Source: a virus
Lineage: Duplodnaviria > Heunggongvirae > Uroviricota > Caudoviricetes
Virus record (IMG/VR): IMGVR_UViG_2698536647_000001
Location: 1-7,918 of that record
Reading direction: 5' to 3' (one strand)
DNA: 7,918 nt
In this document: in pieces, positions 1 to 7,918 of the stretch
How the letters are laid out: each line of letters begins with the position of its first letter
Numbering within the stretch: the stretch's first letter is position 1
Notes under the pieces: model-generated
Seen by the model: only the letters and a program-made list of their open reading frames with translations
Told to the model about the DNA's origin: nothing
Database searches by the model: none
Made by a program: the position numbers and the translations under genes

Positions 1-1
1 A

Positions 2-190
2 GGGGATCCGACTACAGCGAATGAAATTCACGCTTTCCTTCGGCGGCATAAAGTGAAGTCGTTTATTTTCACACCGCCTTTCGGCGATACCGCGCTGTGG
101 CGTGTCGAGGCTGACACGCTCAAAAAGGTGGTTAAAAACGTAAAAGTGATAACCGTAACCGCAACGTTTGAACAGGCATTTGCACCATGA
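2..190 (+). CDS. M: Minor tail protein M, C-terminal fragment (5' end lies outside the window)
   Basis: Hand translation of frame 2 is open from the window edge to TGA at 188-190: ...KSFIFTPPFGDTALWRVEADTLKKVVKNVKVITVTATFEQAFAP*. It resembles the lambda gpM C-terminus as I recall it (SFLWTPPY...EFEQ). The stop overlaps the L start (ATGA), and the gene sits immediately upstream of L as in lambda. Confidence 0.7.
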   Translation, partial: GDPTTANEIHAFLRRHKVKSFIFTPPFGDTALWRVEADTLKKVVKNVKVITVTATFEQAFAP

Positions 191-942
191 GTCTTAATGC
201 TGATTATCAAAAACTCGAGCCGGGCAATGAAGTCCGGCTTTTTTCTGTCGATGGCACAGCGTTCGGTATGTCAGATGTACTCCGCTTCCACGCACATAAT
301 ATCGCGCATACCCCGGAAGAGATTGAGGCTGCAGGCGGGGATGAGAATAAACTTCCGGCGAAGTCCATCTGGTGGCAGGGGGAGGAGTATAAAGCCTGGC
401 CGTGTCAGGTTGAGGGTATTGAAGCGACTACGGACGGTACCAGTCCACAGCCAAAACTGAGTGTGGCGAACCTGGACAGCTCGATCTCAGCGCTCTGTCT
501 GGCGTATGACGATCTGCTGCAGGCGAAAGTGAGTATCCACGACACGCTGGCACAGTATCTGGACGCCAGAAATTTTCCGCAGGGCAATCCCACTGCAGAC
601 CCGTCACAGGAAAAGCTGAAGGTCTTTTATATCGATGCCAGAAGCACCGAGACGGATGAATCTGTTGAATTTACGCTTTCCAGTCCGATGGATTTACAGG
701 GCCAGATGATACCCACGCGGCAGCTGCATTCGTTATGCAGCTGGTGCATCCGGAACAAGTACCGGACCGGCGACGGCTGCGACTATGCCGGAACGCGCTA
801 TTTCGACAAAAACAATAATCCGGTTGACGATCCATCGCTGGATGTCTGCAACGGCACGCTGACGGCCTGCAAGCTCCGGCACGGAGACAGCAACGAGCTG
901 CCGTTTGGCGGTTTCCCCGGTACATCTCTTATCAGGAGCTGA
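187..942 (+). CDS. L: Minor tail protein L (tail tip assembly, Fe-S cluster-binding family)
   Basis: 251-aa ORF with ATG start. It has the C-terminal cysteine cluster (CSWC...C...C...C) typical of lambda gpL-family proteins, and lies between M and K as in lambda. Its start overlaps the M stop (ATGA). Confidence 0.88.
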   Translation: MSLNADYQKLEPGNEVRLFSVDGTAFGMSDVLRFHAHNIAHTPEEIEAAGGDENKLPAKSIWWQGEEYKAWPCQVEGIEATTDGTSPQPKLSVANLDSSISALCLAYDDLLQAKVSIHDTLAQYLDARNFPQGNPTADPSQEKLKVFYIDARSTETDESVEFTLSSPMDLQGQMIPTRQLHSLCSWCIRNKYRTGDGCDYAGTRYFDKNNNPVDDPSLDVCNGTLTACKLRHGDSNELPFGGFPGTSLIRS

Positions 943-943
943 T

Positions 944-1675
944 ATGCGCCAGAAAACCATTGATGCCATCATGGCACACGCTGCAGCGGAATATCCGCGA
1001 GAGTGCTGCGGCGTGGTGGCACAGAAAAGCCGGGTTGAGCGCTATTTTCCCTGTCGTAATCTCGCAGCAGAGCCGACTGAACATTTTCACCTGTCCCCCG
1101 AAGATTACGCAGCGGCAGAAGACTGGGGGACGGTGGTGGCCATTGTTCACAGCCATCCTGATGCGACGACGCAGGCCAGCGAGCTGGATAAGGCGCAGTG
1201 TGATGCAACGCTGCTGCCCTGGCATATTGTGAGCTGGCCAGAGGGGGATTTACGTACCATTCAGCCACGCGGGGAGCTGCCATTGCTGGAGCGTCCGTTC
1301 GTGCTTGGCCACTTCGATTGCTGGGGTCTGGTAATGAGCTATTTCCGGCAGACCCACTGTATCGAGCTCCACGATTACCGGGTGGATTATCCCTGGTGGG
1401 AAAACGACTACCCGGACAATTTCTATCAGGAGTGCTGGTACGAGTGCGGATTCAGGGAGTTTGATGGTCCGCCTCAGGAAGGGGACCTCGTCATCATGCA
1501 GGTGCAGGCCGATAAGTGGAATCATGCCGGGATTTTACTGGAGGGTAACATGCTGCTGCACCATCTTTACGGGCATCTGAGTCAACGTGTTCCTTATGGC
1601 GGATACTGGCAGGAGCGCACAATGAAGATCGTTCGCTATAAAGATGTAATGGCAGGTGAAACATGCAGGAAGTAA
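944..1675 (+). CDS. K: Tail assembly protein K (N-terminal MPN/JAMM domain plus C-terminal NlpC/P60 domain)
   Basis: The ATG at 944 is preceded by AGGAG at 934-938 (5-nt spacer). The track ORF begins at a TTG at 905 that overlaps L, so I prefer 944. A JAMM motif is visible (E in PRECCG; HSHPDATTQASELD = H-x-H-x7-S-x2-D). An NlpC/P60-like Cys (GHFDCWGLV) and His (KWNHAGILL) follow. Position between L and I matches lambda. Confidence 0.88.
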   Translation: MRQKTIDAIMAHAAAEYPRECCGVVAQKSRVERYFPCRNLAAEPTEHFHLSPEDYAAAEDWGTVVAIVHSHPDATTQASELDKAQCDATLLPWHIVSWPEGDLRTIQPRGELPLLERPFVLGHFDCWGLVMSYFRQTHCIELHDYRVDYPWWENDYPDNFYQECWYECGFREFDGPPQEGDLVIMQVQADKWNHAGILLEGNMLLHHLYGHLSQRVPYGGYWQERTMKIVRYKDVMAGETCRK

Positions 1676-2253
1676 TGACCCGCATTGAGCTTGGCGGCGT
1701 GCTCGGGAAAACATTCGGTAAAGTTCACCATCGCCTGATTTCCCGCGTGAACGAAGCGAGTGTTGCGCTGGCAAAGACTATACCGGGCTTTGAGCAGTTT
1801 ATGATTTCGAGCCAACGCCGTGGTCTCACTTATTCAGTATTCAAAGGGAAAAAGAATATTGGTGTTGATGACCTGGGTTACCCGGTCACCGGCGATGTCA
1901 TTCGCATTGTCCCGGTGATTATCGGGAGCAAAAAGGCCGGATTACTCCAGACAATACTTGGTGCAGTTCTGGTTGCCGTTGGGGCGGTGCTTAATTTCAC
2001 ACCCTGGGCTGCGGCATCACCATTCTTATACAAATTCGGTGCCGCAATGATGATTGGCGGGGTTGTTCAGATGCTTTCCCCTCAACCAGCGGGGCTGGCC
2101 AGCAAACAGAGTTCAGATAACCGCGCCTCATACGCGTTCGGTGGAGTCACCAACACCGCCGCGCAGGGCTATCCGGTACCGCTTCTTTATGGTCGTCGGC
2201 AAATCGGCGGTGCGATTATTTCTGCCGGGATTTATGTCGAAGACCAGCAATAA
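1663..2253 (+). CDS. I: Tail assembly protein I (gpI-like, hydrophobic Gly/Ala-rich C-terminal half)
   Basis: 196-aa ORF overlapping the K stop. An alternative start is the ATG at 1675 in a TAATG stop/start overlap. The Gly/Ala/Val-rich hydrophobic segment (LLQTILGAVLVAVGAVLNF...MMIGGVVQMLSP) and C-terminal PVPLLYG motif resemble lambda gpI, and it lies directly upstream of J. Confidence 0.85.
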   Translation: MQEVMTRIELGGVLGKTFGKVHHRLISRVNEASVALAKTIPGFEQFMISSQRRGLTYSVFKGKKNIGVDDLGYPVTGDVIRIVPVIIGSKKAGLLQTILGAVLVAVGAVLNFTPWAAASPFLYKFGAAMMIGGVVQMLSPQPAGLASKQSSDNRASYAFGGVTNTAAQGYPVPLLYGRRQIGGAIISAGIYVEDQQ

Positions 2254-2269
2254 ATAAAAACCTCCTTTC

Positions 2270-2295
2270 AGGCCACCTCAGGGTGGCCTTTTTTA
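2270..2295 (+). terminator. Putative rho-independent terminator between I and J
   Basis: Perfect inverted repeat AGGCCACC (2270-2277) / GGTGGCCT (2282-2289) with loop TCAG, followed directly by a T-run (2289-2294). It sits 17 nt after the I stop and just upstream of the J start. Confidence 0.5.
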
Positions 2296-2305
2296 TGGGC
2301 GCAAT

Positions 2306-5300
2306 ATGGCTACATCTACTCCGATTAGAGGCCGCAAGGGCGGCAGCTCCAGTTCACGCACCCCGACTGAACAACCAGACGATCTCCAGTCCGTAGCGAA
2401 AGCCAAAATTCTTGTTGCACTGGGAGAGGGCGAATTTGCAGGGCAGTTGACGGCGAAGGATATCTATCTCGATGGCACGCCACTGGAGAATGCAGACGGA
2501 TCGCAAAACTTCAGTGGCGTGGCGTGGGAATTTCGTCCGGGGACTCAGGCACAAAAATATATTCAGGGTATCCCCGGCACAGAAAATGAAATCAGCGTGG
2601 GCACCGAAGTGTCAAGCACCACCGGCTGGACACATACCTTTACCAACACGCAACTGTCAGCCGTTCGCCTGCGCCTCAAGTGGCCATCGCTTTTTAAACA
2701 GGAGGATGATGGCGATCTGGTTGGCTATTCAATTAACTACGCTATTGATCTGCAGACCGATGGCGGCACCTGGCAGACGGTACTTAATACCAGCGTAACC
2801 GGCAAGACAACTTCCGGCTACGAACGCAGCCATCGTATCGATTTACCACAGGCAGGCAGTACATGGACGGTGCGCCTGCGTAAGCTTACGGCGGATGCCA
2901 ACAGCGCGAAAATTGGCGACACGATGACGCTGCAGAGCTACACAGAGGTTATTGACGCCAAACTGCGTTATCCAAATACCGCGCTGCTGTACATCGAATT
3001 CGACTCAAGCCAGTTTAACGGCTCTATCCCGCAAATATCCTGCGAACCGCGAGGGCGTGTAATCCGCGTTCCGGATACGTATGACCCGGAGACCCGCACC
3101 TACAGCGGCACATGGACAGGGGCGTTTAAGTGGGCGTGGACGGATAATCCAGCCTGGATTTTTTACGATCTGGTGGTGAGCGACCGCTTTGGGCTGGGCA
3201 ATCGCCTGACGGCGGCCAATATTGATAAATGGACGCTTTATCAGGTCGCGCAATATTGCGATCAGCCGGTTCCTGATGGTAAAGGCGGTAGCGGCACTGA
3301 GCCTCGCTATACCTGTAACGTGTACGTGCAGGAGAGGAATGACGCCTATACCGTGTTACGTGATTTTGCGGCGATATTCCGGGGCATGACGTACTGGGGT
3401 GGCGATCAAATCGTTGCGCTGGCGGATATGCCCCGCGATGTGGATTACAGCTACACGCGTGCAAACGTGGTTAATGGGCGCTTTACCTATTCGGGCAGCA
3501 CCACCAAAACCCGCTATACCACGGCACTGGTTTCCTGGTCCGATCCGGGTAATGCCTACGCGGATGCGATGGAGCCTGTATTTGAGCAGGATCTCGTTGC
3601 TCGCTTTGGCACAAATCAGCTCGAAATGACAGCCATTGGTTGTACCCGGCAGTCAGAGGCAAACCGCAAAGGACGTTGGGGTATCCTGACCAATAACAAG
3701 GATCGCATCGTGTCGTTCGATGTTGGTCTTGACGGTAAGATCCCACAGCCTGGTTATATCATCGCGGTTGCCGATGAGCTGCTTTCCGGAAAAGTGATGG
3801 GAGGGCGCATCAGCGCGGTTAACGGTCGCGTTATCACGCTTGATCGTGATTCGGCAGCCGCTCCCGGAAGCCGTCTGATGGTTAACCTTCCGTCCGGCGC
3901 ATCGCAGAGCAGGACGATACAGAGCGTAAACGGGCGGGCCGTCACTGTGACAACGGCATACAGCGAAACACCTGCAGTGGAATCGGTGTGGATTGTCGAG
4001 TCTGAAGAGCTTTACGCGCAGCAATATCGCGTTATCAGCGTTACGGATAATAATGACGGAACGTATTCGATTGCTGGCGCTTTGCACGATCCGGATAAAT
4101 ATGCGCGTATCGATACCGGTGCCATTATCGACCAGCGGCCAATAAGTGTAATTCCGCCCGGTAATCAGTCCCCGCCAGCTAATATCGCGATCAGTTCGTT
4201 TTCTGTCGTTCAGCAGAATATCAGCGTTGAGACCATGCGCGTCAGCTGGGACCAGGCGAAAAATGCTATCGCGTATGAGGCACAGTGGCGTCGCAATGAC
4301 GGGAACTGGGTGAATGTGCCGCGCAGCTCCACCACGTCATTCGATGTTCCGGGGATTTATGCAGGACGCTACCTGGTTCGCGTGCGTGCCATCAATGCCG
4401 CCGAAATTTCATCTGGGTGGGGCTATTCAGAAGAGAAAACGTTGACGGGTAAAGTGGGAAACCCACCGAAGCCGGTTGGCTTCATCGCTTCTGAAAACGT
4501 GGTATTCGGTATCGAGCTGAACTGGGGATTCCCGGCGAATACCGAAGACACGCTGAAGACGGAAATTCAGTACAGCCTGACCGGTAGCGAAGATGATGCA
4601 ATGCTGCTGGCCGATGTGCCTTATCCGCAGCGCAAATATCAGCAGATGGGTCTTAAGGCAGGGCAGATTTTCTGGTATCGCGCGCAACTGGTCGACAGAA
4701 CGGGAAACGAGTCCGGGTATACCGACTGGGTGCGAGGTCAGGCCAGCATCGATGTTTCCGATATCACCGATGTGATCCTGGAGGAGATCAAAGACTCCGC
4801 TACGTTTAAAGATCTGATTGAGAGCGCAGTGGACAGCAATGAAAAAATTGCTGGCATGGCTGACGAAATCAAAAACCATGCCGACGAGCTGGAGCAGCAG
4901 GCGAAAGATATACAGGAAAACGCTGACGGGCTGGCGCAGGCGGCGGTAAAAATCGATGAGATTTCCGTTTCAATGGACGGTATGACAGGAGGCGTGAAGA
5001 ATTCGGCAATTGCGATAATCCAGAATGGGCTGGCGCAGGTTGTCAGTCGTCGTTCCCAGACAGCAACAAACGCCGGGAACAGTGCCAGTATAGACAGAGT
5101 GGATACTACGATTGCCGATACCAGCCAGGCGGTCGCACGCGCGCTGGTCACACTGGATGCAGAAGCTGGTGGCAATATCTCTAACTCAACGGACCTGACA
5201 GAAACTCTTGCTGATTTCACCCAGGCTTCGGCAACAAAAATCAACACTCTGACTGTTAAATCAGGCGAAAACAGTGCAGCGATAAACGTCAACGCACAGG

Positions 5301-5761
5301 CTATAGCAGATGTAAACGGTAACCTCAGCGCGATGTATAACATCAAGGTGGGGGTGTCCAGTAACGGGCAGTATTACGCTGCCGGGATGGGTATTGGGGT
5401 TCAAAATACACCCTCCGGCATGCAGTCACAGGTAATCTTCCTGGCAGACCGTTTCGCCGTGACTACTATGGTCGGCGGGACTGTAACACTGCCGTTCGTT
5501 ATCCAGAATGGCCAGGCCATTATCAGGGATACAGTCATTGGCGACGGGACCATAAGCAATGCAAAAATTGGCAATTACATCCAGTCGAACAATTATGTTG
5601 CCGGCTCTGTTGGCTGGAAACTGGATAAGTCCGGGACGTTTGAGAACTACGGTTCGACAGCTGGGGAGGGAGCCATGAAGCAGACCAACCAGACAATCAG
5701 CGTCAAGGATGGCAACAACGTTCTGAGAGTGCAGGTTGGCCGATTAACGGGGGTGTTCTGA
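2306..5761 (+). CDS. J: Tail tip / host specificity protein J (central tail fibre)
   Basis: 1151-aa ORF, about the size of lambda gpJ (about 1130 aa). Segments match my recollection of lambda J (e.g. TWTGAFKWAWTDNPAWIFYDLV...YCDQPVPDG...TEPRYTCNVY versus lambda GIWDGTFKPAYSNNMAWCLWDML...YCDQSVPDG...TEPRITCNAY). There is an FN3-like segment (VSWDQAKNAIAYEAQWRRNDGNW...YLVRVRAINA), an acidic coiled-coil-like stretch and a divergent C-terminus. It follows I as in lambda. Confidence 0.92.
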   Translation: MATSTPIRGRKGGSSSSRTPTEQPDDLQSVAKAKILVALGEGEFAGQLTAKDIYLDGTPLENADGSQNFSGVAWEFRPGTQAQKYIQGIPGTENEISVGTEVSSTTGWTHTFTNTQLSAVRLRLKWPSLFKQEDDGDLVGYSINYAIDLQTDGGTWQTVLNTSVTGKTTSGYERSHRIDLPQAGSTWTVRLRKLTADANSAKIGDTMTLQSYTEVIDAKLRYPNTALLYIEFDSSQFNGSIPQISCEPRGRVIRVPDTYDPETRTYSGTWTGAFKWAWTDNPAWIFYDLVVSDRFGLGNRLTAANIDKWTLYQVAQYCDQPVPDGKGGSGTEPRYTCNVYVQERNDAYTVLRDFAAIFRGMTYWGGDQIVALADMPRDVDYSYTRANVVNGRFTYSGSTTKTRYTTALVSWSDPGNAYADAMEPVFEQDLVARFGTNQLEMTAIGCTRQSEANRKGRWGILTNNKDRIVSFDVGLDGKIPQPGYIIAVADELLSGKVMGGRISAVNGRVITLDRDSAAAPGSRLMVNLPSGASQSRTIQSVNGRAVTVTTAYSETPAVESVWIVESEELYAQQYRVISVTDNNDGTYSIAGALHDPDKYARIDTGAIIDQRPISVIPPGNQSPPANIAISSFSVVQQNISVETMRVSWDQAKNAIAYEAQWRRNDGNWVNVPRSSTTSFDVPGIYAGRYLVRVRAINAAEISSGWGYSEEKTLTGKVGNPPKPVGFIASENVVFGIELNWGFPANTEDTLKTEIQYSLTGSEDDAMLLADVPYPQRKYQQMGLKAGQIFWYRAQLVDRTGNESGYTDWVRGQASIDVSDITDVILEEIKDSATFKDLIESAVDSNEKIAGMADEIKNHADELEQQAKDIQENADGLAQAAVKIDEISVSMDGMTGGVKNSAIAIIQNGLAQVVSRRSQTATNAGNSASIDRVDTTIADTSQAVARALVTLDAEAGGNISNSTDLTETLADFTQASATKINTLTVKSGENSAAINVNAQAIADVNGNLSAMYNIKVGVSSNGQYYAAGMGIGVQNTPSGMQSQVIFLADRFAVTTMVGGTVTLPFVIQNGQAIIRDTVIGDGTISNAKIGNYIQSNNYVAGSVGWKLDKSGTFENYGSTAGEGAMKQTNQTISVKDGNNVLRVQVGRLTGVF

Positions 5762-5762
5762 T

Positions 5763-6065
5763 ATGGCTTATGGAATACAGACCTGGGATGCTTCGGGAAA
5801 CCCCAACAACTACGGAATCAAGCCCGTTTCCGTTGTTGGACGTATACAACTTGCCGCCGGACAAAACTCCGGCAGCTGGTCTTTTACGGTGCCCTCAGGA
5901 ATGAAAGTTGGTTTTGTTCTTTCACTTGATGAAGGAGGTAACAGCGTAGGGCGGCGCATTGTCGCGTCAGGGAGCACAATAACCGTAAGCGCTGCATCTT
6001 CTGTAGGTCTGGGTAATTATCCGGCCTCAAAGTGTGAAGTGGTCGTTTTCATGGAGAAAGCATAA
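5763..6065 (+). CDS. Hypothetical protein, first gene of a post-J module (unknown function; carries WDASG and SGSW motifs)
   Basis: 100-aa ORF whose ATG lies 1 nt after the J stop, with a G-rich SD-like stretch upstream. Its stop overlaps the next start (TAATG). No signal peptide or TM segment is apparent. It shares motifs with the next ORF. Confidence 0.6.
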   Translation: MAYGIQTWDASGNPNNYGIKPVSVVGRIQLAAGQNSGSWSFTVPSGMKVGFVLSLDEGGNSVGRRIVASGSTITVSAASSVGLGNYPASKCEVVVFMEKA

Positions 6066-6739
6066 TGGCCGAATTTGGCGCGATGATATTAATGGACAAC
6101 GGGAACCCATTTGTAACGCCCCAGTCAACGCCTTTTTGTCTTTACGGCAAGTACACTTTCAACTCCTCTGCTAATGGCAGTTCGCAGCAAGTTGCTAAGA
6201 ATATTGCATTAAATGCTGACTACCCTGTGATGGTATTTATCAGGACCACAAATACCGCCCAGCCCACGCCAGTAATATCTTACCGGAACGGCGGAAATGT
6301 ATATGTCGCGGGGGTTAATCCCTATAACCAAAGTTTCACTTTAACGGCGTACGTTTTTGCCATATTCCCGCAGATATTACCGAAATGGGGTTTGGCAATA
6401 TGGGATGCGAGCGGAAAGCTTGTGTTAACTAATGAGTCCCGTGTGCTATCAGACCTGCAGACGGTTGGCACGCCTGGTGCAAACGGCGGGATAAATATTG
6501 ACCAGACGCTGAGCGGGTCATGGGCCGTTGCACCTGCTCAGTTGGGTCAGACCATCATTGTGAATAATTCAACCCAGCCTCCGACTATCTACACGATAAA
6601 TGCTTATTCTTCATGCAGGTTTGACGGGGCCAATACGAGGATAAACGCAGGGGGGACCTCCACTGGGGCAGGTTCACCTGGAGGGGGAACGAATACTGGC
6701 ATTTCATTAACCGCCATAAATACAGCGGCCTATGATTGA
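6065..6739 (+). CDS. Hypothetical protein, second gene of the post-J module (apparent tandem duplication of the upstream ORF's domain; Gly-rich C-terminal tail)
   Basis: 224-aa ORF with GGAG at 6053-6056, 8 nt upstream of the ATG. It contains WGLAIWDASGK and SGSW (compare YGIQTWDASGN and SGSW in the 100-aa ORF), and its N-terminus MAEFGAMILMDNGNP echoes MAYGIQTWDASGNP. It ends in a Gly/Thr/Ser-rich tail (GGTSTGAGSPGGGTNTG). It looks more AT-rich than J by eye. Confidence 0.6.
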   Translation: MAEFGAMILMDNGNPFVTPQSTPFCLYGKYTFNSSANGSSQQVAKNIALNADYPVMVFIRTTNTAQPTPVISYRNGGNVYVAGVNPYNQSFTLTAYVFAIFPQILPKWGLAIWDASGKLVLTNESRVLSDLQTVGTPGANGGINIDQTLSGSWAVAPAQLGQTIIVNNSTQPPTIYTINAYSSCRFDGANTRINAGGTSTGAGSPGGGTNTGISLTAINTAAYD

Positions 6740-6769
6740 TTGATCGTTTTTAGCGATAAATAACATAAT
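6740..6769 (+). promoter_or_regulatory. Candidate sigma70 promoter for the lipoprotein moron
   Basis: TTGATC (6740-6745), an 18-bp spacer, then CATAAT (6764-6769), inside a 110-bp AT-rich intergenic region directly upstream of the lipoprotein gene. This is pattern-based only. Confidence 0.3.
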
Positions 6770-6850
6770 ATTGATCTATCCAATCAATTATACCCACCAG
6801 AATTGTATTGGTATCGTCTAAGATACTGAATTCCTCTGGATACTATCAAA

Positions 6851-7084
6851 ATGAGAAAACTGATTATCTGCATGGCAGGCGCTGTCATGCTTACAGGATG
6901 CGCTGGCGTAATTGAGAAACAGGAACCAGTTTGCAGCGGCACTGCAATCGTTGGCGGTCAGGAAACTACGGTTCAGATTTACGGTGTGCGTAAACAAAAC
7001 AACCAGACGCAGTACCGGGCTGGATATCCTTTCAGCTGGCGCTGGGTAAGTGCGAATACATTTACCGAAACAACCTGCAAATAA
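6851..7084 (+). CDS. Small secreted lipoprotein (moron); possible Cor-like superinfection-exclusion lipoprotein
   Basis: 77-aa ORF. The N-terminus MRKLIICMAGAVMLTGC has a basic n-region, a hydrophobic core and an LTGC lipobox, so a signal peptidase II site is predicted. The +2 residue is Ala, which suggests outer-membrane sorting. The mature part has two further Cys. The gene is bracketed by an AT-rich promoter-like region and a downstream hairpin plus T-run. Its position between J and the tail fibre gene is where lambdoid phages carry cor or lom. Confidence 0.7.
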   Translation: MRKLIICMAGAVMLTGCAGVIEKQEPVCSGTAIVGGQETTVQIYGVRKQNNQTQYRAGYPFSWRWVSANTFTETTCK

Positions 7085-7105
7085 CCCACTACGCTTAAAC
7101 ATAAA

Positions 7106-7128
7106 CCTCGCTCCGGCGGGGTTTTTTT
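7106..7128 (+). terminator. Putative rho-independent terminator after the lipoprotein gene
   Basis: Stem CCTCGC (7106-7111) / GCGGGG (7116-7121) with one G-U pair and loop TCCG, followed by T7 (7122-7128). It lies 22 nt after the lipoprotein stop. Confidence 0.45.
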
Positions 7129-7144
7129 ATTGCCTGGAGAAAAT

Positions 7145-7918
7145 ATGCTTTATAACACCGGCACCATCGCCATTAATGGAAATACCGCCACCGGGACGGG
7201 TACAAACTGGACGGCACCGGCCAGCCAGGTTCGCGCTGGCCAGACAATTATCGTGATGTCTAACCCGGTGCAACTGTTCCAGATTTCATCCGTGAACAGC
7301 GCCACGTCAATGACGGTTACTCCAGCTGCTTCCCCGGCGCTGAGCGGCCAGAAGTACGGCATTCTGGTATCAGACAATATCTCGGTCGACGGCCTGGCAC
7401 AGGCTATGTCACAGCTCATCAAAGAGTACGACGAGAATATTGGCGCGTGGGAGACGTTCGCCACCACCTCAGCAAACCAGAGCATCACCGTTACCATCAA
7501 CGGCACCGCCGTAACCATCCCAGGCATCGGTAAACTTGCGCAGAAAGGGAGCAATGGTGCGCTTGCAATCGCTGACGGCGGGACCGGGGCAACGACTGCA
7601 GAAGACGCTCGCAAAAACTTCGGTTTAGGAAGTAGTGCGACAAAGGATGTCGGAACTGCGGCAGGGAATGTTATGCAGGTGGGAGCTTTTGGGGTTGGTG
7701 CTGTTCTCCAAAATAAGCCCACAGATGCCAGTTCATCCTTCATCAGTGATGCTGATGGCAATACTCTGTGGGCTCCTTCGTATGGCTGTGGGTTTCAGAG
7801 TTCCTACACCGGGCATCGAATTGCGCAGCTGTGGATTACTTACGGTAATGCGGTATTCAGCCGTTTTCTAACAACCACTGACCCTCAAACACCAAAATCA
7901 TCAGTGCCGTGGGCGCAG
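7145..7918 (+). CDS. stf: Side tail fibre protein, N-terminal part (3' end lies outside the window)
   Basis: The ATG at 7145 is preceded by GGAG (7136-7139, 5-nt spacer). My hand translation is open for 258 codons to the window end: MLYNTGTIAINGNTATGTGTNWTAPASQVRAGQTIIVMSNPVQLF... It contains the tail-fibre hallmark ...GALAIADGGTGATTAEDARKNFGLG.... It is missing from the supplied ORF track only because it has no stop inside the window. Confidence 0.8.
   Translation, partial: MLYNTGTIAINGNTATGTGTNWTAPASQVRAGQTIIVMSNPVQLFQISSVNSATSMTVTPAASPALSGQKYGILVSDNISVDGLAQAMSQLIKEYDENIGAWETFATTSANQSITVTINGTAVTIPGIGKLAQKGSNGALAIADGGTGATTAEDARKNFGLGSSATKDVGTAAGNVMQVGAFGVGAVLQNKPTDASSSFISDADGNTLWAPSYGCGFQSSYTGHRIAQLWITYGNAVFSRFLTTTDPQTPKSSVPWAQ

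Follow-up and report, generated by a model that had tools for sequence, protein, structure and literature searches.

The C-terminal part of the tail protein J (aa 816–1151), comprising a shaft, a beta-prism and a tip cap, together with the two open reading frames and the cor gene that follow it, probably constitutes a host-range module that specifies FhuA, a reading to which we give a probability of roughly 0.8. The DNA analysed, referred to below as the window, is a stretch of 7,918 nucleotides from a Caudoviricetes phage (IMG/VR record IMGVR_UViG_2698536647_000001). FhuA is the receptor of phages phi80, T1 and N15, and phi80 infection via FhuA is TonB-dependent. From these relatives, and from a secondary citation given below, we infer that the receptor of the window phage is probably FhuA, the ferrichrome transporter, and not LamB; receptor choice probably resides in the downstream open reading frames rather than in J itself.

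A mosaic J protein

The features that define the extent and the mosaic structure of J are as follows:

2306..5761, + strand: J, central tail fibre or tip attachment protein (single open reading frame, 1151 aa)
2306..4705, + strand: J hub and FNIII body, N15/HK97-like (per-window identities to relatives)
4706..4795, + strand: mosaic junction at about aa 801–830, where the nearest relative changes from N15/HK97 to phi80 (windowed identities)

Pfam places FNIII-A_GpJ at aa 92–218, Phage-tail_3 at aa 343–505 and Phage_Tail_Tip at aa 993–1128, and the hub and FNIII regions are homologous to those of lambda gpJ (PF24801, E 2e-50; PF13550, E 9e-14). By BLASTP, aa 13–885 align with lambda gpJ 4–869 at 32% identity, which bears out the by-eye alignment of the N-terminal part with lambda in the initial annotation, and aa 988–1078 align with lambda J 840–930 (26%, E 3e-9). 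With the lambda gpJ domain definitions of PMC11101478, the two proteins have the same domain order up to the prism and equivalent shaft starts, but the lambda receptor-binding domain, C-terminal to residue 998, has no counterpart in J by Pfam or in the BLASTP alignment. Thus the Ig-like LamB-binding domain of lambda is missing, and J ends 23 residues past the Pfam domain PF09327. A further difference is that J is followed by lom in lambda and by a cassette of a 100-aa open reading frame, a 224-aa open reading frame and cor in the window. On these alignments J is a lambda-type gpJ/TipJ central tail fibre without a receptor-binding domain, of the phi80/T1/N15 kind. The claim that the last 330 or so residues are unlike lambda holds as far as the missing receptor domain is concerned, although about 130 of them form a beta-prism that lambda also has.

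Mapping the conservation breakpoint against lambda, phi80, N15 and HK97, as the initial annotation had suggested, locates the switch at the junction given above. Residues 1–720 are 92–100% identical to N15 gp21, and HK97 J is about 78–100% identical in windows of 40 aa as far as about aa 840; over the first 800 or so residues identity is about 55% to phi80 and 32% to lambda. Past aa 840 the identity to phi80 goes from about 45–60% to 98–100% and that to N15 drops to 12–28%, and a megablast match to phi80 starts at nt 4775. The last 320 or so residues (from about aa 831) match phi80 J at about 96% identity in protein and 87% in nucleotide sequence, with a dN/dS of 0.065 over aa 831–1151. Within this part aa 841–1040 are 98–100% identical to phi80, a stretch of the prism (aa 1041–1080) just 72%, and aa 1081–1151, which include the cap, 92–94% (65–80% to N15 and about 70% to T1). 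Judged by these identities, J is a recombinant carrying a phi80-like C-terminus on an N15/HK97-like body, and its C-terminus, the two downstream open reading frames and cor appear as one phi80-like block, inherited as a unit. The tip or receptor had been expected to differ from that of lambda, and both the missing LamB domain and the 94–100% identity of the block to the FhuA phage phi80 agree with this.

The closest likeness is to mEp237 (AFM76175; mEp237_021–023), in which J is 100% identical in amino-acid sequence, the 100-aa open reading frame 96%, the 224-aa open reading frame 99% and cor 100%. In nucleotide sequence the two agree at 98.1% across window positions 1–7629, and a separate nucleotide match reaches 99.8%. 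The similarity stops at nt 7629, within the side-fibre gene, and there are scattered nucleotide differences, so that the window is distinct from the mEp237 genome as deposited. Of 5426 complete E. coli genomes, 62 carry related prophages.

Shaft, prism and cap

The C-terminal part of J resolves into the following features:

4754..5248, + strand: extended acidic alpha-helical shaft, aa 817–981 (heptad score, AF2, lambda alignment)
4781..4963, + strand: acidic heptad stretch EEIKD...KIDEI quoted in the initial annotation, aa 826–886 (exact peptide match)
4976..4996, + strand: first shaft break, Gly-rich MDGMTGG, aa 891–897 (non-helical in AF2)
5165..5194, + strand: second shaft break, AGGNISNSTD, aa 954–963 (non-helical in AF2)
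5282..5644, + strand: beta-prism "central straight fibre" domain, aa 993–1113 (PF09327, E 7e-48)
5645..5758, + strand: 38-residue tip cap NYGSTAGEGAMK...LRVQVGRLTGVF, aa 1114–1151 (divergence point of J homologue classes)

The heptad stretch had been placed at about 4780–4975, slightly beyond where it is found, and all the quoted peptides are present, although the start given for the region is off the frame by one base (residue 816 corresponds to nt 4751). The stretch is indeed acidic, with 17 D/E against 6 K/R, a net charge of −11 and a pI of 4.1, as is the whole shaft (28 D/E against 12 K/R, pI 4.2). Scored at the a and d positions over 28 residues, against a null of shuffled windows (mean 0.05, 99th percentile 0.53), it peaks at 0.88 and keeps a single heptad register from about aa 837 to 892. 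Over the whole of J only aa 828–895, plus a borderline aa 919–955, exceed the 99th percentile, and the only significant heptad signal thus overlaps the quoted stretch. The score collapses at MDGMTGG, which is conserved among homologues. Helices are predicted by AF2 at aa 817–829, 832–890, 898–953 and 964–981, with low pLDDT there and a mean pLDDT of 47 for the J fragment, so that the helix boundaries are soft.

A helical shaft is not, however, what sets J apart from lambda, as the initial annotation had it: a homologous shaft of three helices is found in lambda gpJ at residues 809–861 (PMC11101478), to the start of which the shaft of J aligns by BLASTP and these domain definitions, and the window J shaft is just longer, at about 165 residues as opposed to about 53, or about three times the length. 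The shaft runs in three helical segments and, by homology, should form a three-stranded coiled coil. Phi80 gp21 has a shaft of equal length (196 residues between two marker motifs) and the same cap. A comparable arrangement is seen in the central fibre PyoF10 of an F2-type pyocin (PDB sequence match, E 4e-28), which has a beta-prism and an extended shaft, a three-stranded coiled coil kinked at Gly, lacks a receptor-binding domain, and is followed by Ig-like proteins proposed as the receptor module. It differs in how side fibres attach, which in the pyocin is by an OB domain docked on the acidic shaft kink; no PyoF13-like chain turned up when PDB sequences were searched with the window side-fibre N-terminus, the best matches to which are anchor domains of Klebsiella phage depolymerases.

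The prism, in which AF2 predicts beta strands, matches T1 gp33, PyoF10 and a J-like gp24 in PDB sequence searches. J homologue classes part right after GWKLDKSGTFE, within VAGSVGWKLDKSGTFENYGS (aa 1098–1117), and the J terminus, whose last residues are VQVGRLTGVF (aa 1142–1151), fits the cap pattern ENYGS...LRVQxGxLTGVF. This cap, common to T1, N15 and phi80, is the sole confidently modelled part of the AF2 J fragment (pLDDT 76–89), and we propose that it is a docking platform for the downstream proteins. The "distinct terminal domain" of the initial annotation resolves into the conserved PF09327 prism and these 38 residues. As the C-terminal domain is conserved with the J of a phage of known receptor, phi80 (FhuA), the region is of a known type and not novel; the arrangement that had been picked out is that of phi80, T1 and N15, correctly described but ordinary.

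The genes downstream of J

Downstream of J the window contains the following:

5763..6065, + strand: 100-aa open reading frame, 10.2 kDa, homologue of phi80 gp22, N15 gp22 and T1 gp32, candidate adaptor (PHROG 557, E 2.5e-36)
6065..6739, + strand: 224-aa open reading frame, 23.5 kDa, homologue of phi80 gp23, N15 gp23 and T1 gp31, candidate FhuA-binding protein (PHROG 425)
6851..7084, + strand: cor, superinfection-exclusion lipoprotein, 77 aa (PHROG 1119, E 7e-37)
7106..7128, + strand: intrinsic terminator 3' of cor (GC-rich hairpin with a trailing T7 run)
7145..7918, + strand: 5' part of the side tail fibre gene, which runs off the window (open frame from ATG 7145; annotated as tail fibre in mEp237)

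The coupling of these open reading frames to J, claimed in the initial annotation, is evident from their spacing, with the J stop TGA at 5759–5761 and the next ATG one base further at 5763, and with the stop of the 100-aa open reading frame overlapping the start of the 224-aa open reading frame (TAATG, 6063–6067). The products of the downstream genes are 94–100% identical to phi80 gp22, gp23 and Cor. Individually, the 100-aa protein is 98% identical to its homologue in phi80, 78% in N15 and 55% in T1, and the 224-aa protein 94%, 65% and 56% respectively; mean column identity is 79% for the smaller and 63% for the larger family. The cor gene is 100% identical to that of phi80 in both nucleotide and protein sequence and encodes a signal peptide with an LTGC lipobox, and the terminator coincides in position with that annotated in mEp237.

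PHROGs labels the two post-J open reading frames "outer membrane protein" and "membrane associated protein". These labels are misleading: neither protein has a signal peptide or a transmembrane segment, the maximum 19-residue hydropathy being about 1.2–1.3. The 224-aa protein has no Pfam match, a profile search of PDB sequences with it returned nothing, and it resembles the FhuA-binding protein pb5 of T5 in neither sequence nor fold. It is, however, 58% identical to Teewinot gp25 over 100% of its length and so falls within the FhuA receptor-binding family of small siphoviruses as delimited by >30% identity and >99% coverage (bioRxiv 10.64898/2026.04.02.716166), and we assume that it is the counterpart of the binder described there.

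Among 120 J homologues, cap classes track the downstream genes. The window-type cap is followed by open reading frames of 100, 225 and 77 aa, a second class by one of 98 aa and DUF8377, and a third by a member of the DUF6453 family that shows homology (E 2e-27) to the LptD-binding protein of Oekolampad, itself validated by cryo-EM as a receptor-binding protein (PDB 9RPT chain C). In phi80, N15 and T1 alike, J is followed by an open reading frame of about 100 aa, one of about 225 aa and cor. HK97 J is the same as the window J to aa 1113, beyond which it carries an extra C-terminal extension, making it 145 aa longer overall, and the cassette of 100-aa and 224-aa open reading frames and cor is absent after it.

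Other systems agree in part. T1 (gp33, gp32, gp31 and Cor) and the FhuA-dependent Dhillonviruses Teewinot and JLBYU60 share a J without a receptor domain, the same cap and FhuA as receptor, and their small open reading frames are 55–58% identical to those of the window; these are, however, virulent phages of other families whose shaft sequences are 10–40% identical to that of the window J, and in T1 cor lies on the opposite strand. For the C-terminus of T1 gp33, which cryo-EM did not resolve, a long alpha/beta fibre is predicted (PMC11945409). The Oekolampad (Bas18) binder is more distant: it is a single protein of about 320 aa of the Pfam family DUF6453 (PF20051), without a 100-aa partner, uses LptD as receptor, and is 10% identical to the 224-aa protein. 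BLASTP of the latter against 9RPT chain C and DUF6453 gave a local motif only (E 0.022), and Foldseek did not recover a match to the Oekolampad binder.

A proposed model for FhuA recognition

Dedicated receptor-binding proteins encoded downstream of gpJ, together with cor, have been described (PMC8594841, PMC12309495, bioRxiv 10.64898/2026.04.02.716166), the published assignments of FhuA-family binders resting on comparative genomics and AlphaFold (the latter two). Most likely J serves as scaffold and trigger and the 100-aa protein as adaptor, while FhuA binding falls to the 224-aa protein. In this model a J trimer would be the scaffold, and both small proteins would be present in the virion, docked on the J cap, with the 224-aa protein itself binding the extracellular face of FhuA and the smaller one acting as adaptor. 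Binding would then be relayed through J, via the prism and shaft, with release of the FNIII domains and opening of the tail tip as in lambda. Cor made by a lysogen would inactivate FhuA and so exclude superinfection; according to a secondary account, a Cor-producing lysogen excludes mEp237 (PMC9311878, citing Uc-Mass 2004).

We consider it unlikely that FhuA is contacted directly by J, through its cap or distal prism, with the two open reading frames encoding tip-assembly chaperones or lysogenic-conversion or membrane proteins. That the cap is highly conserved in phi80, N15 and T1, all of them FhuA phages, would fit this equally well, as would its having been flagged as an FhuA-associated sequence feature (bioRxiv 10.64898/2026.04.02.716166), and a membrane role has the PHROGs labels in its favour, the presence of both proteins in the virion being something we infer. 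Yet neither protein has a signal peptide or hydrophobic segment, and both are translationally coupled to J inside the late tail operon. The model of the 224-aa protein appears to resemble a validated receptor-binding protein whose gene occupies the syntenic position, and a sister cap class carries a homologue of the validated Oekolampad protein downstream, both of which argue against chaperone or membrane functions, while in published models the interface between the J tip and FhuA was of low confidence and geometrically implausible (PMC12309495).

Proteins of about 11 kDa at the position equivalent to that of the 100-aa protein, directly after J, are predicted to be Ig-like, resembling the lambda receptor-binding domain, and in some systems scored as the better binder (PMC12309495). 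The 100-aa protein might accordingly act as a trimer that binds FhuA, a detached equivalent of the lambda Ig-like domain, leaving the 224-aa protein as an accessory or second-receptor factor. This seems to us quite improbable: profile comparison of the 100-aa family with the lambda C-terminal domain gives a probability of 0.9%, and in FhuA-dependent Dhillonvirus it is a protein of about 21 kDa that is the confident FhuA partner (PMC12309495). The 100-aa family is also the more conserved of the two as regards N15 and phi80 (identity to T1 being similar for both), which is more in keeping with an adaptor than with a determinant of specificity. That the C-terminal region has a new specificity, for neither LamB nor FhuA, with the shaft and terminal domain as a new architecture, is very improbable. 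The divergent stretch of the prism and the 6% of positions at which the 224-aa protein differs from phi80 could be read in this way, but the overall identity to phi80 is 94–100% over the J C-terminus, both open reading frames and cor, every domain has named homologues, and J is identical to that of mEp237, which is reportedly Cor-excluded.

A short hairpin-like motif, G-h-x-h-(W)-D/K-x-x-G, is repeated at four places: where the J prism ends (VGWKLDKSG, aa 1102–1110), at the N-terminus of the 100-aa protein (YGIQTWDASG), and at the N-terminus (FGAMILMDNG) and centre (WGLAIWDASG) of the 224-aa protein. It is also present in unrelated cassettes behind other cap classes, and in the 224-aa protein the motif segments are the most conserved parts and those least confidently modelled as a monomer. 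A speculative and rather doubtful generalization is a plug-in rule whereby interchangeable receptor-binding cassettes would dock as an extension of the J prism, mimicking its repeat unit, with the unusually long, acidic shaft of three segments setting the reach and serving as the trigger spring.

The misleading membrane labels of the post-J open reading frames are corrected here, and FhuA can now be annotated as the probable receptor for this prophage or phage. HK97 represents an alternative solution, a receptor domain fused to the same scaffold, and the window J, with its junction at the start of the shaft, is a clear-cut natural case of host-range modules being exchanged.

Gene layout and the architecture of J

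The + strand of the window is a lambda-like tail-tip operon, in which the gene for the gpJ-type tail-tip protein J is followed by two small ORFs (encoding proteins of 100 and 224 residues) and by cor.

Features of the window
187-942, +, L
ends at 1675, +, K, with JAB and NlpC/P60 domains
1663-2253, +, I
2306-5761, +, J (1151 aa)
5763-6065, +, 100-aa ORF
6065-6739, +, 224-aa ORF
6851-7084, +, cor
7106-7128, +, terminator
from 7145, +, start portion of the side tail fibre gene

K begins with a TTG at 905 in the mechanical ORF list (905-1675) and so overlaps L, while its equivalent in the mEp237 annotation begins about 40 nt further downstream. Opposite the J shaft there is a long antisense ORF of 202 aa, 4738-5346 (-), and opposite the side-fibre gene one of 203 aa, 7150-7761 (-); both probably result from the coding composition of the + strand.

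The window is 98.1% identical to mEp237 at the nucleotide level over positions 1-7629 and diverges beyond. Of 5426 complete E. coli genomes, 62 carry similar prophages. The region encoding the C-terminus of J (4750-5761) is 99.8% identical to mEp237 and J itself is 100% identical at the protein level; the module is not new, as the same J is a GenBank entry in the mEp237 genome record. The mEp237 similarity stops at nt 7629 within the side-fibre gene, and the distal fibre therefore differs from that of mEp237.

By BLASTP, lambda gpJ residues 4-869 align with J aa 13-885 at 32% identity, and a second segment, lambda gpJ 840-930, aligns with J 988-1078 (26%, E 3e-9); no part of J aligns with the C-terminal domain of lambda gpJ. 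Pfam Phage_Tail_Tip is found at aa 993-1128, after which 23 residues remain. J lacks a receptor-binding domain, and carries an extended acidic heptad shaft (aa 817-981), a conserved beta-prism (aa ~993-1113) and a terminal cap (aa 1114-1151).

The initial annotation had described a C-terminus divergent from lambda, with an acidic coiled-coil-like segment and a distinct terminal domain, and had concluded that the receptor probably differs. The observation is confirmed and its main inference was right; what J truly lacks is the receptor-binding domain. All of the peptides it quoted are located in J, the acidic stretch at aa 826-886 (nt 4781-4963) and the terminal ones at aa 1098-1117 and 1142-1151. 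The acidic stretch, with a net charge of -11 and a pI of 4.1, contains 17 acidic residues to 6 basic ones, and the a/d-position score of the heptad-like stretch reaches 0.88 compared with 0.53 for the 99th percentile of shuffled windows. The heptad register is unchanged from about aa 837 to 892, and nowhere else in the entire protein is the score strong, aa 919-955 being borderline. The supposed coiled coil is better described as a lambda-type shaft, here acidic and with heptads, of ~165 residues as against ~53 in lambda, and the distinct terminal domain as the prism with a short cap.

An AF2 monomer model of J aa 816-1151, built from a 27-sequence alignment, is poor (mean pLDDT 47) and confident only at aa about 1086-1145, so that outside the last ~60 residues the secondary structure alone is usable. 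It places helices, with soft boundaries, at aa 817-829, 832-890, 898-953 and 964-981, and beta strands after them. We infer that the shaft would be a three-stranded coiled coil.

Whether the side fibre may dock on this acidic shaft, in the manner of the F2 pyocin, was probed with the side-fibre N-terminus, which shows no similarity to lambda Stf; no pyocin side-fibre chain is among its PDB sequence matches, which are Klebsiella phage depolymerase anchor domains. In the side fibre (window 7145-7918), the match to the N-terminal anchor domain in PDB 7LZJ (E 3e-13) covers about the first 100 residues. These comparisons speak neither for nor against such docking.

A phi80-type block from the shaft to cor

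A multiple alignment of J with its counterparts in phi80, N15, HK97 and T1 reveals a mosaic. Over aa 1-720, N15 gp21 is 92-100% identical to J and phi80 just about 55%. In windows of 40 aa, HK97 J is about 78-100% identical as far as about aa 840. Phi80 takes over as the closest relative at about aa 841; its identity to J is 98-100% in aa 841-1040, 72% in aa 1041-1080 and 92-94% in aa 1081-1151. The junction falls at the start of the shaft (about aa 801-830, nt ~4706-4795), where the C-terminal region considered here also begins. The phi80-like block runs on 3' through the 100-aa ORF (98% identical) and the 224-aa ORF (94%) to cor, which is 100% identical to that of phi80, nucleotides included. 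The C-terminus of J, both small ORFs and cor are inherited as a phi80-type unit. Across J aa 831-1151 dN/dS is 0.065.

The patch of 40 prism residues at aa 1041-1080 (window 5426-5545), which covers FAVTTMVGGTVTLPFVIQNGQAIIRD, has a dN of 0.20 at its 72% identity to phi80, in near-identical surroundings. Synonymous divergence from phi80 varies greatly across window 4706-7084, the span from J aa ~801 to cor. Within J, dS is 0.17 (aa 831-900), 0.38 (aa 901-1000), 1.45 (aa 1001-1040), about 2.0 (aa 1041-1080) and 0.89 (aa 1081-1151), and downstream it is 0.16 in the 100-aa ORF, 0.40 in the 224-aa ORF and 0 in cor. Because dS varies so much inside the block, these values suggest several nested recombination events rather than one.

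The gene order J, ~100-aa ORF, ~225-aa ORF, cor is common to the FhuA phages phi80, N15 and T1. HK97 J shares the architecture up to GWKLDKSGTFE (aa 1113) but then has a C-terminal extension; the whole protein exceeds J of the window by 145 aa, and stf comes immediately after it. The only match of this extension to the lambda C-terminus is a weak one of 40 residues (E 0.003).

Cap type and downstream cassette

To describe the modularity of this region we used 120 database homologues of the J fragment (P0001-P0120), which form four classes by their sequence from the start of the prism onwards. One genomic context was looked up for each of three classes.

Tail classes among 120 J homologues, with the genes that follow in the one context looked up
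Window type, 143-146 residues, ending LRVQxGxLTGVF; followed by ORFs of 100, 225 and 77 aa
140-residue type; followed by an ORF of 98 aa and then a DUF8377 protein, the latter unrelated to the 224-aa ORF
154-157-residue type; one DUF6453 protein of 321 aa follows (157-residue class)
258-276-residue type, which includes HK97 and has an additional domain

All of the classes part right after aa 1113, and on this basis the cap is defined as the 38 residues aa 1114-1151. The 321-aa DUF6453 protein is homologous (E 2e-27) to the Oekolampad protein (PDB 9RPT chain C), for which binding to LptDE has been shown by cryo-EM. Cap and downstream content change together in all four classes, HK97 counted, albeit in a small sample, and cap type tracks the downstream cassette. 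This co-variation agrees with a preprint, in which the GpJ C-terminal tip is a specificity-associated feature and is suggested to mediate compatibility with a locus-encoded binder (bioRxiv 10.64898/2026.04.02.716166).

The shaft also occurs in discrete length classes, of 196 (window and phi80), 228 (HK97), 296, 310 and 324 residues, measured between two conserved marker motifs spanning the region equivalent to window 4736-5356. The last three differ by steps of 14, or two heptads; the step of +32 is not a whole number of heptads.

The small proteins and the receptor

The 100-aa and 224-aa ORFs belong to families labelled 'outer membrane protein' (PHROG 557) and 'membrane associated protein' (PHROG 425) respectively. 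These membrane labels, in PHROG and RefSeq, look unfounded, as neither protein has a signal peptide or hydrophobic segment (maximum 19-residue hydropathy about 1.2-1.3). A lipoprotein signal is present in Cor. Homologues of the 224-aa protein occur in 350 phage records, including lambdoid phages, Dhillonviruses and T1-like phages, and gp25 of the FhuA-dependent phage Teewinot is 58% identical to it. Three records labelled 'Campylobacter phage' (MG065636, MG065679 and MG065648; hits H77, H78 and H87) hold homologues 50-63% identical, which resembles the identity in T1-like and Dhillonvirus coliphages and suggests mislabelled or contaminant genomes.

The AF2 model of the 224-aa protein is all-beta (pLDDT 79, pTM 0.76). 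PDB sequence searches with both small proteins and with the 224-aa family profile gave nothing meaningful, and a possible fold link between the 224-aa protein and the Oekolampad protein counts as moderate evidence because Foldseek does not reproduce the match. The most conserved segments of the 224-aa protein (aa 1-30 and 91-160) include the lowest-confidence parts of the monomer model (aa 1-22 and 103-125), and conservation by block correlates with pLDDT at -0.58, a pattern compatible with segments that need a partner in order to fold. Compared with N15 and phi80, and by mean column identity, the 100-aa family is the more conserved of the two; against T1 the two are about equal. That the 100-aa protein might be a detached lambda receptor domain finds no support at the sequence level, a profile comparison with the lambda receptor-binding domain giving a probability of 0.9%.

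A motif, G-h-x-h-(W)-D/K-x-x-G, is present at four places in the window.

Copies of the motif
5609-5638, VGWKLDKSG, end of the J prism (aa 1102-1110)
5769-5798, YGIQTWDASG, N-terminus of the 100-aa ORF
6074-6103, FGAMILMDNG, N-terminus of the 224-aa ORF
6386-6415, WGLAIWDASG, middle of the 224-aa ORF

By hhalign the N-terminus of the 100-aa protein matches the internal motif of the 224-aa protein (E 6e-5 over 13 columns), and other cassettes have like motifs in their 98-aa and DUF6453 proteins. This apparent short link, which joins the end of the prism with both small proteins and with other cassettes, is the one observation that was slightly unexpected.

FhuA is the receptor of the phages phi80, T1 and N15, and is blocked by Cor. 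In lambda, prism and shaft pass on the signal of receptor binding, so that the FNIII domains are released and the tip opens. The initial suggestion of an unrecognised specificity does not hold, since the C-terminus is conserved with the J of a phage of known receptor, phi80. J ends in the C-terminal module of phi80, an architecture on which there have been repeated reports from 2021 onwards. One proposal has dedicated receptor-binding proteins that are encoded with cor 3' of gpJ and associate non-covalently with a J-like protein (PMC8594841). Another description is of a 'knife-like' J end that has no Ig domain and is followed by an Ig-like protein of ~11 kDa and a 'hand-like' protein of ~21 kDa, the latter being the confident predicted partner of FhuA in a FhuA-dependent Dhillonvirus (PMC12309495). 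The same layout is found in a tailocin, the F2 pyocin (PMC13455828), and the C-terminus of T1 gp33 (residues 821-1172), unresolved by cryo-EM, is predicted to be a long alpha/beta fibre (PMC11945409). A paper on co-transfer in lambdoid phages contains nothing specific about a module of J C-terminus and cassette.

We consider it likely, at roughly four chances in five, that this is a phi80-type tip without a receptor domain in J and with FhuA as receptor. The two small proteins would be virion components docked on the cap, and we lean towards the 224-aa protein as the binder, which would contact FhuA with the 100-aa protein as adaptor.
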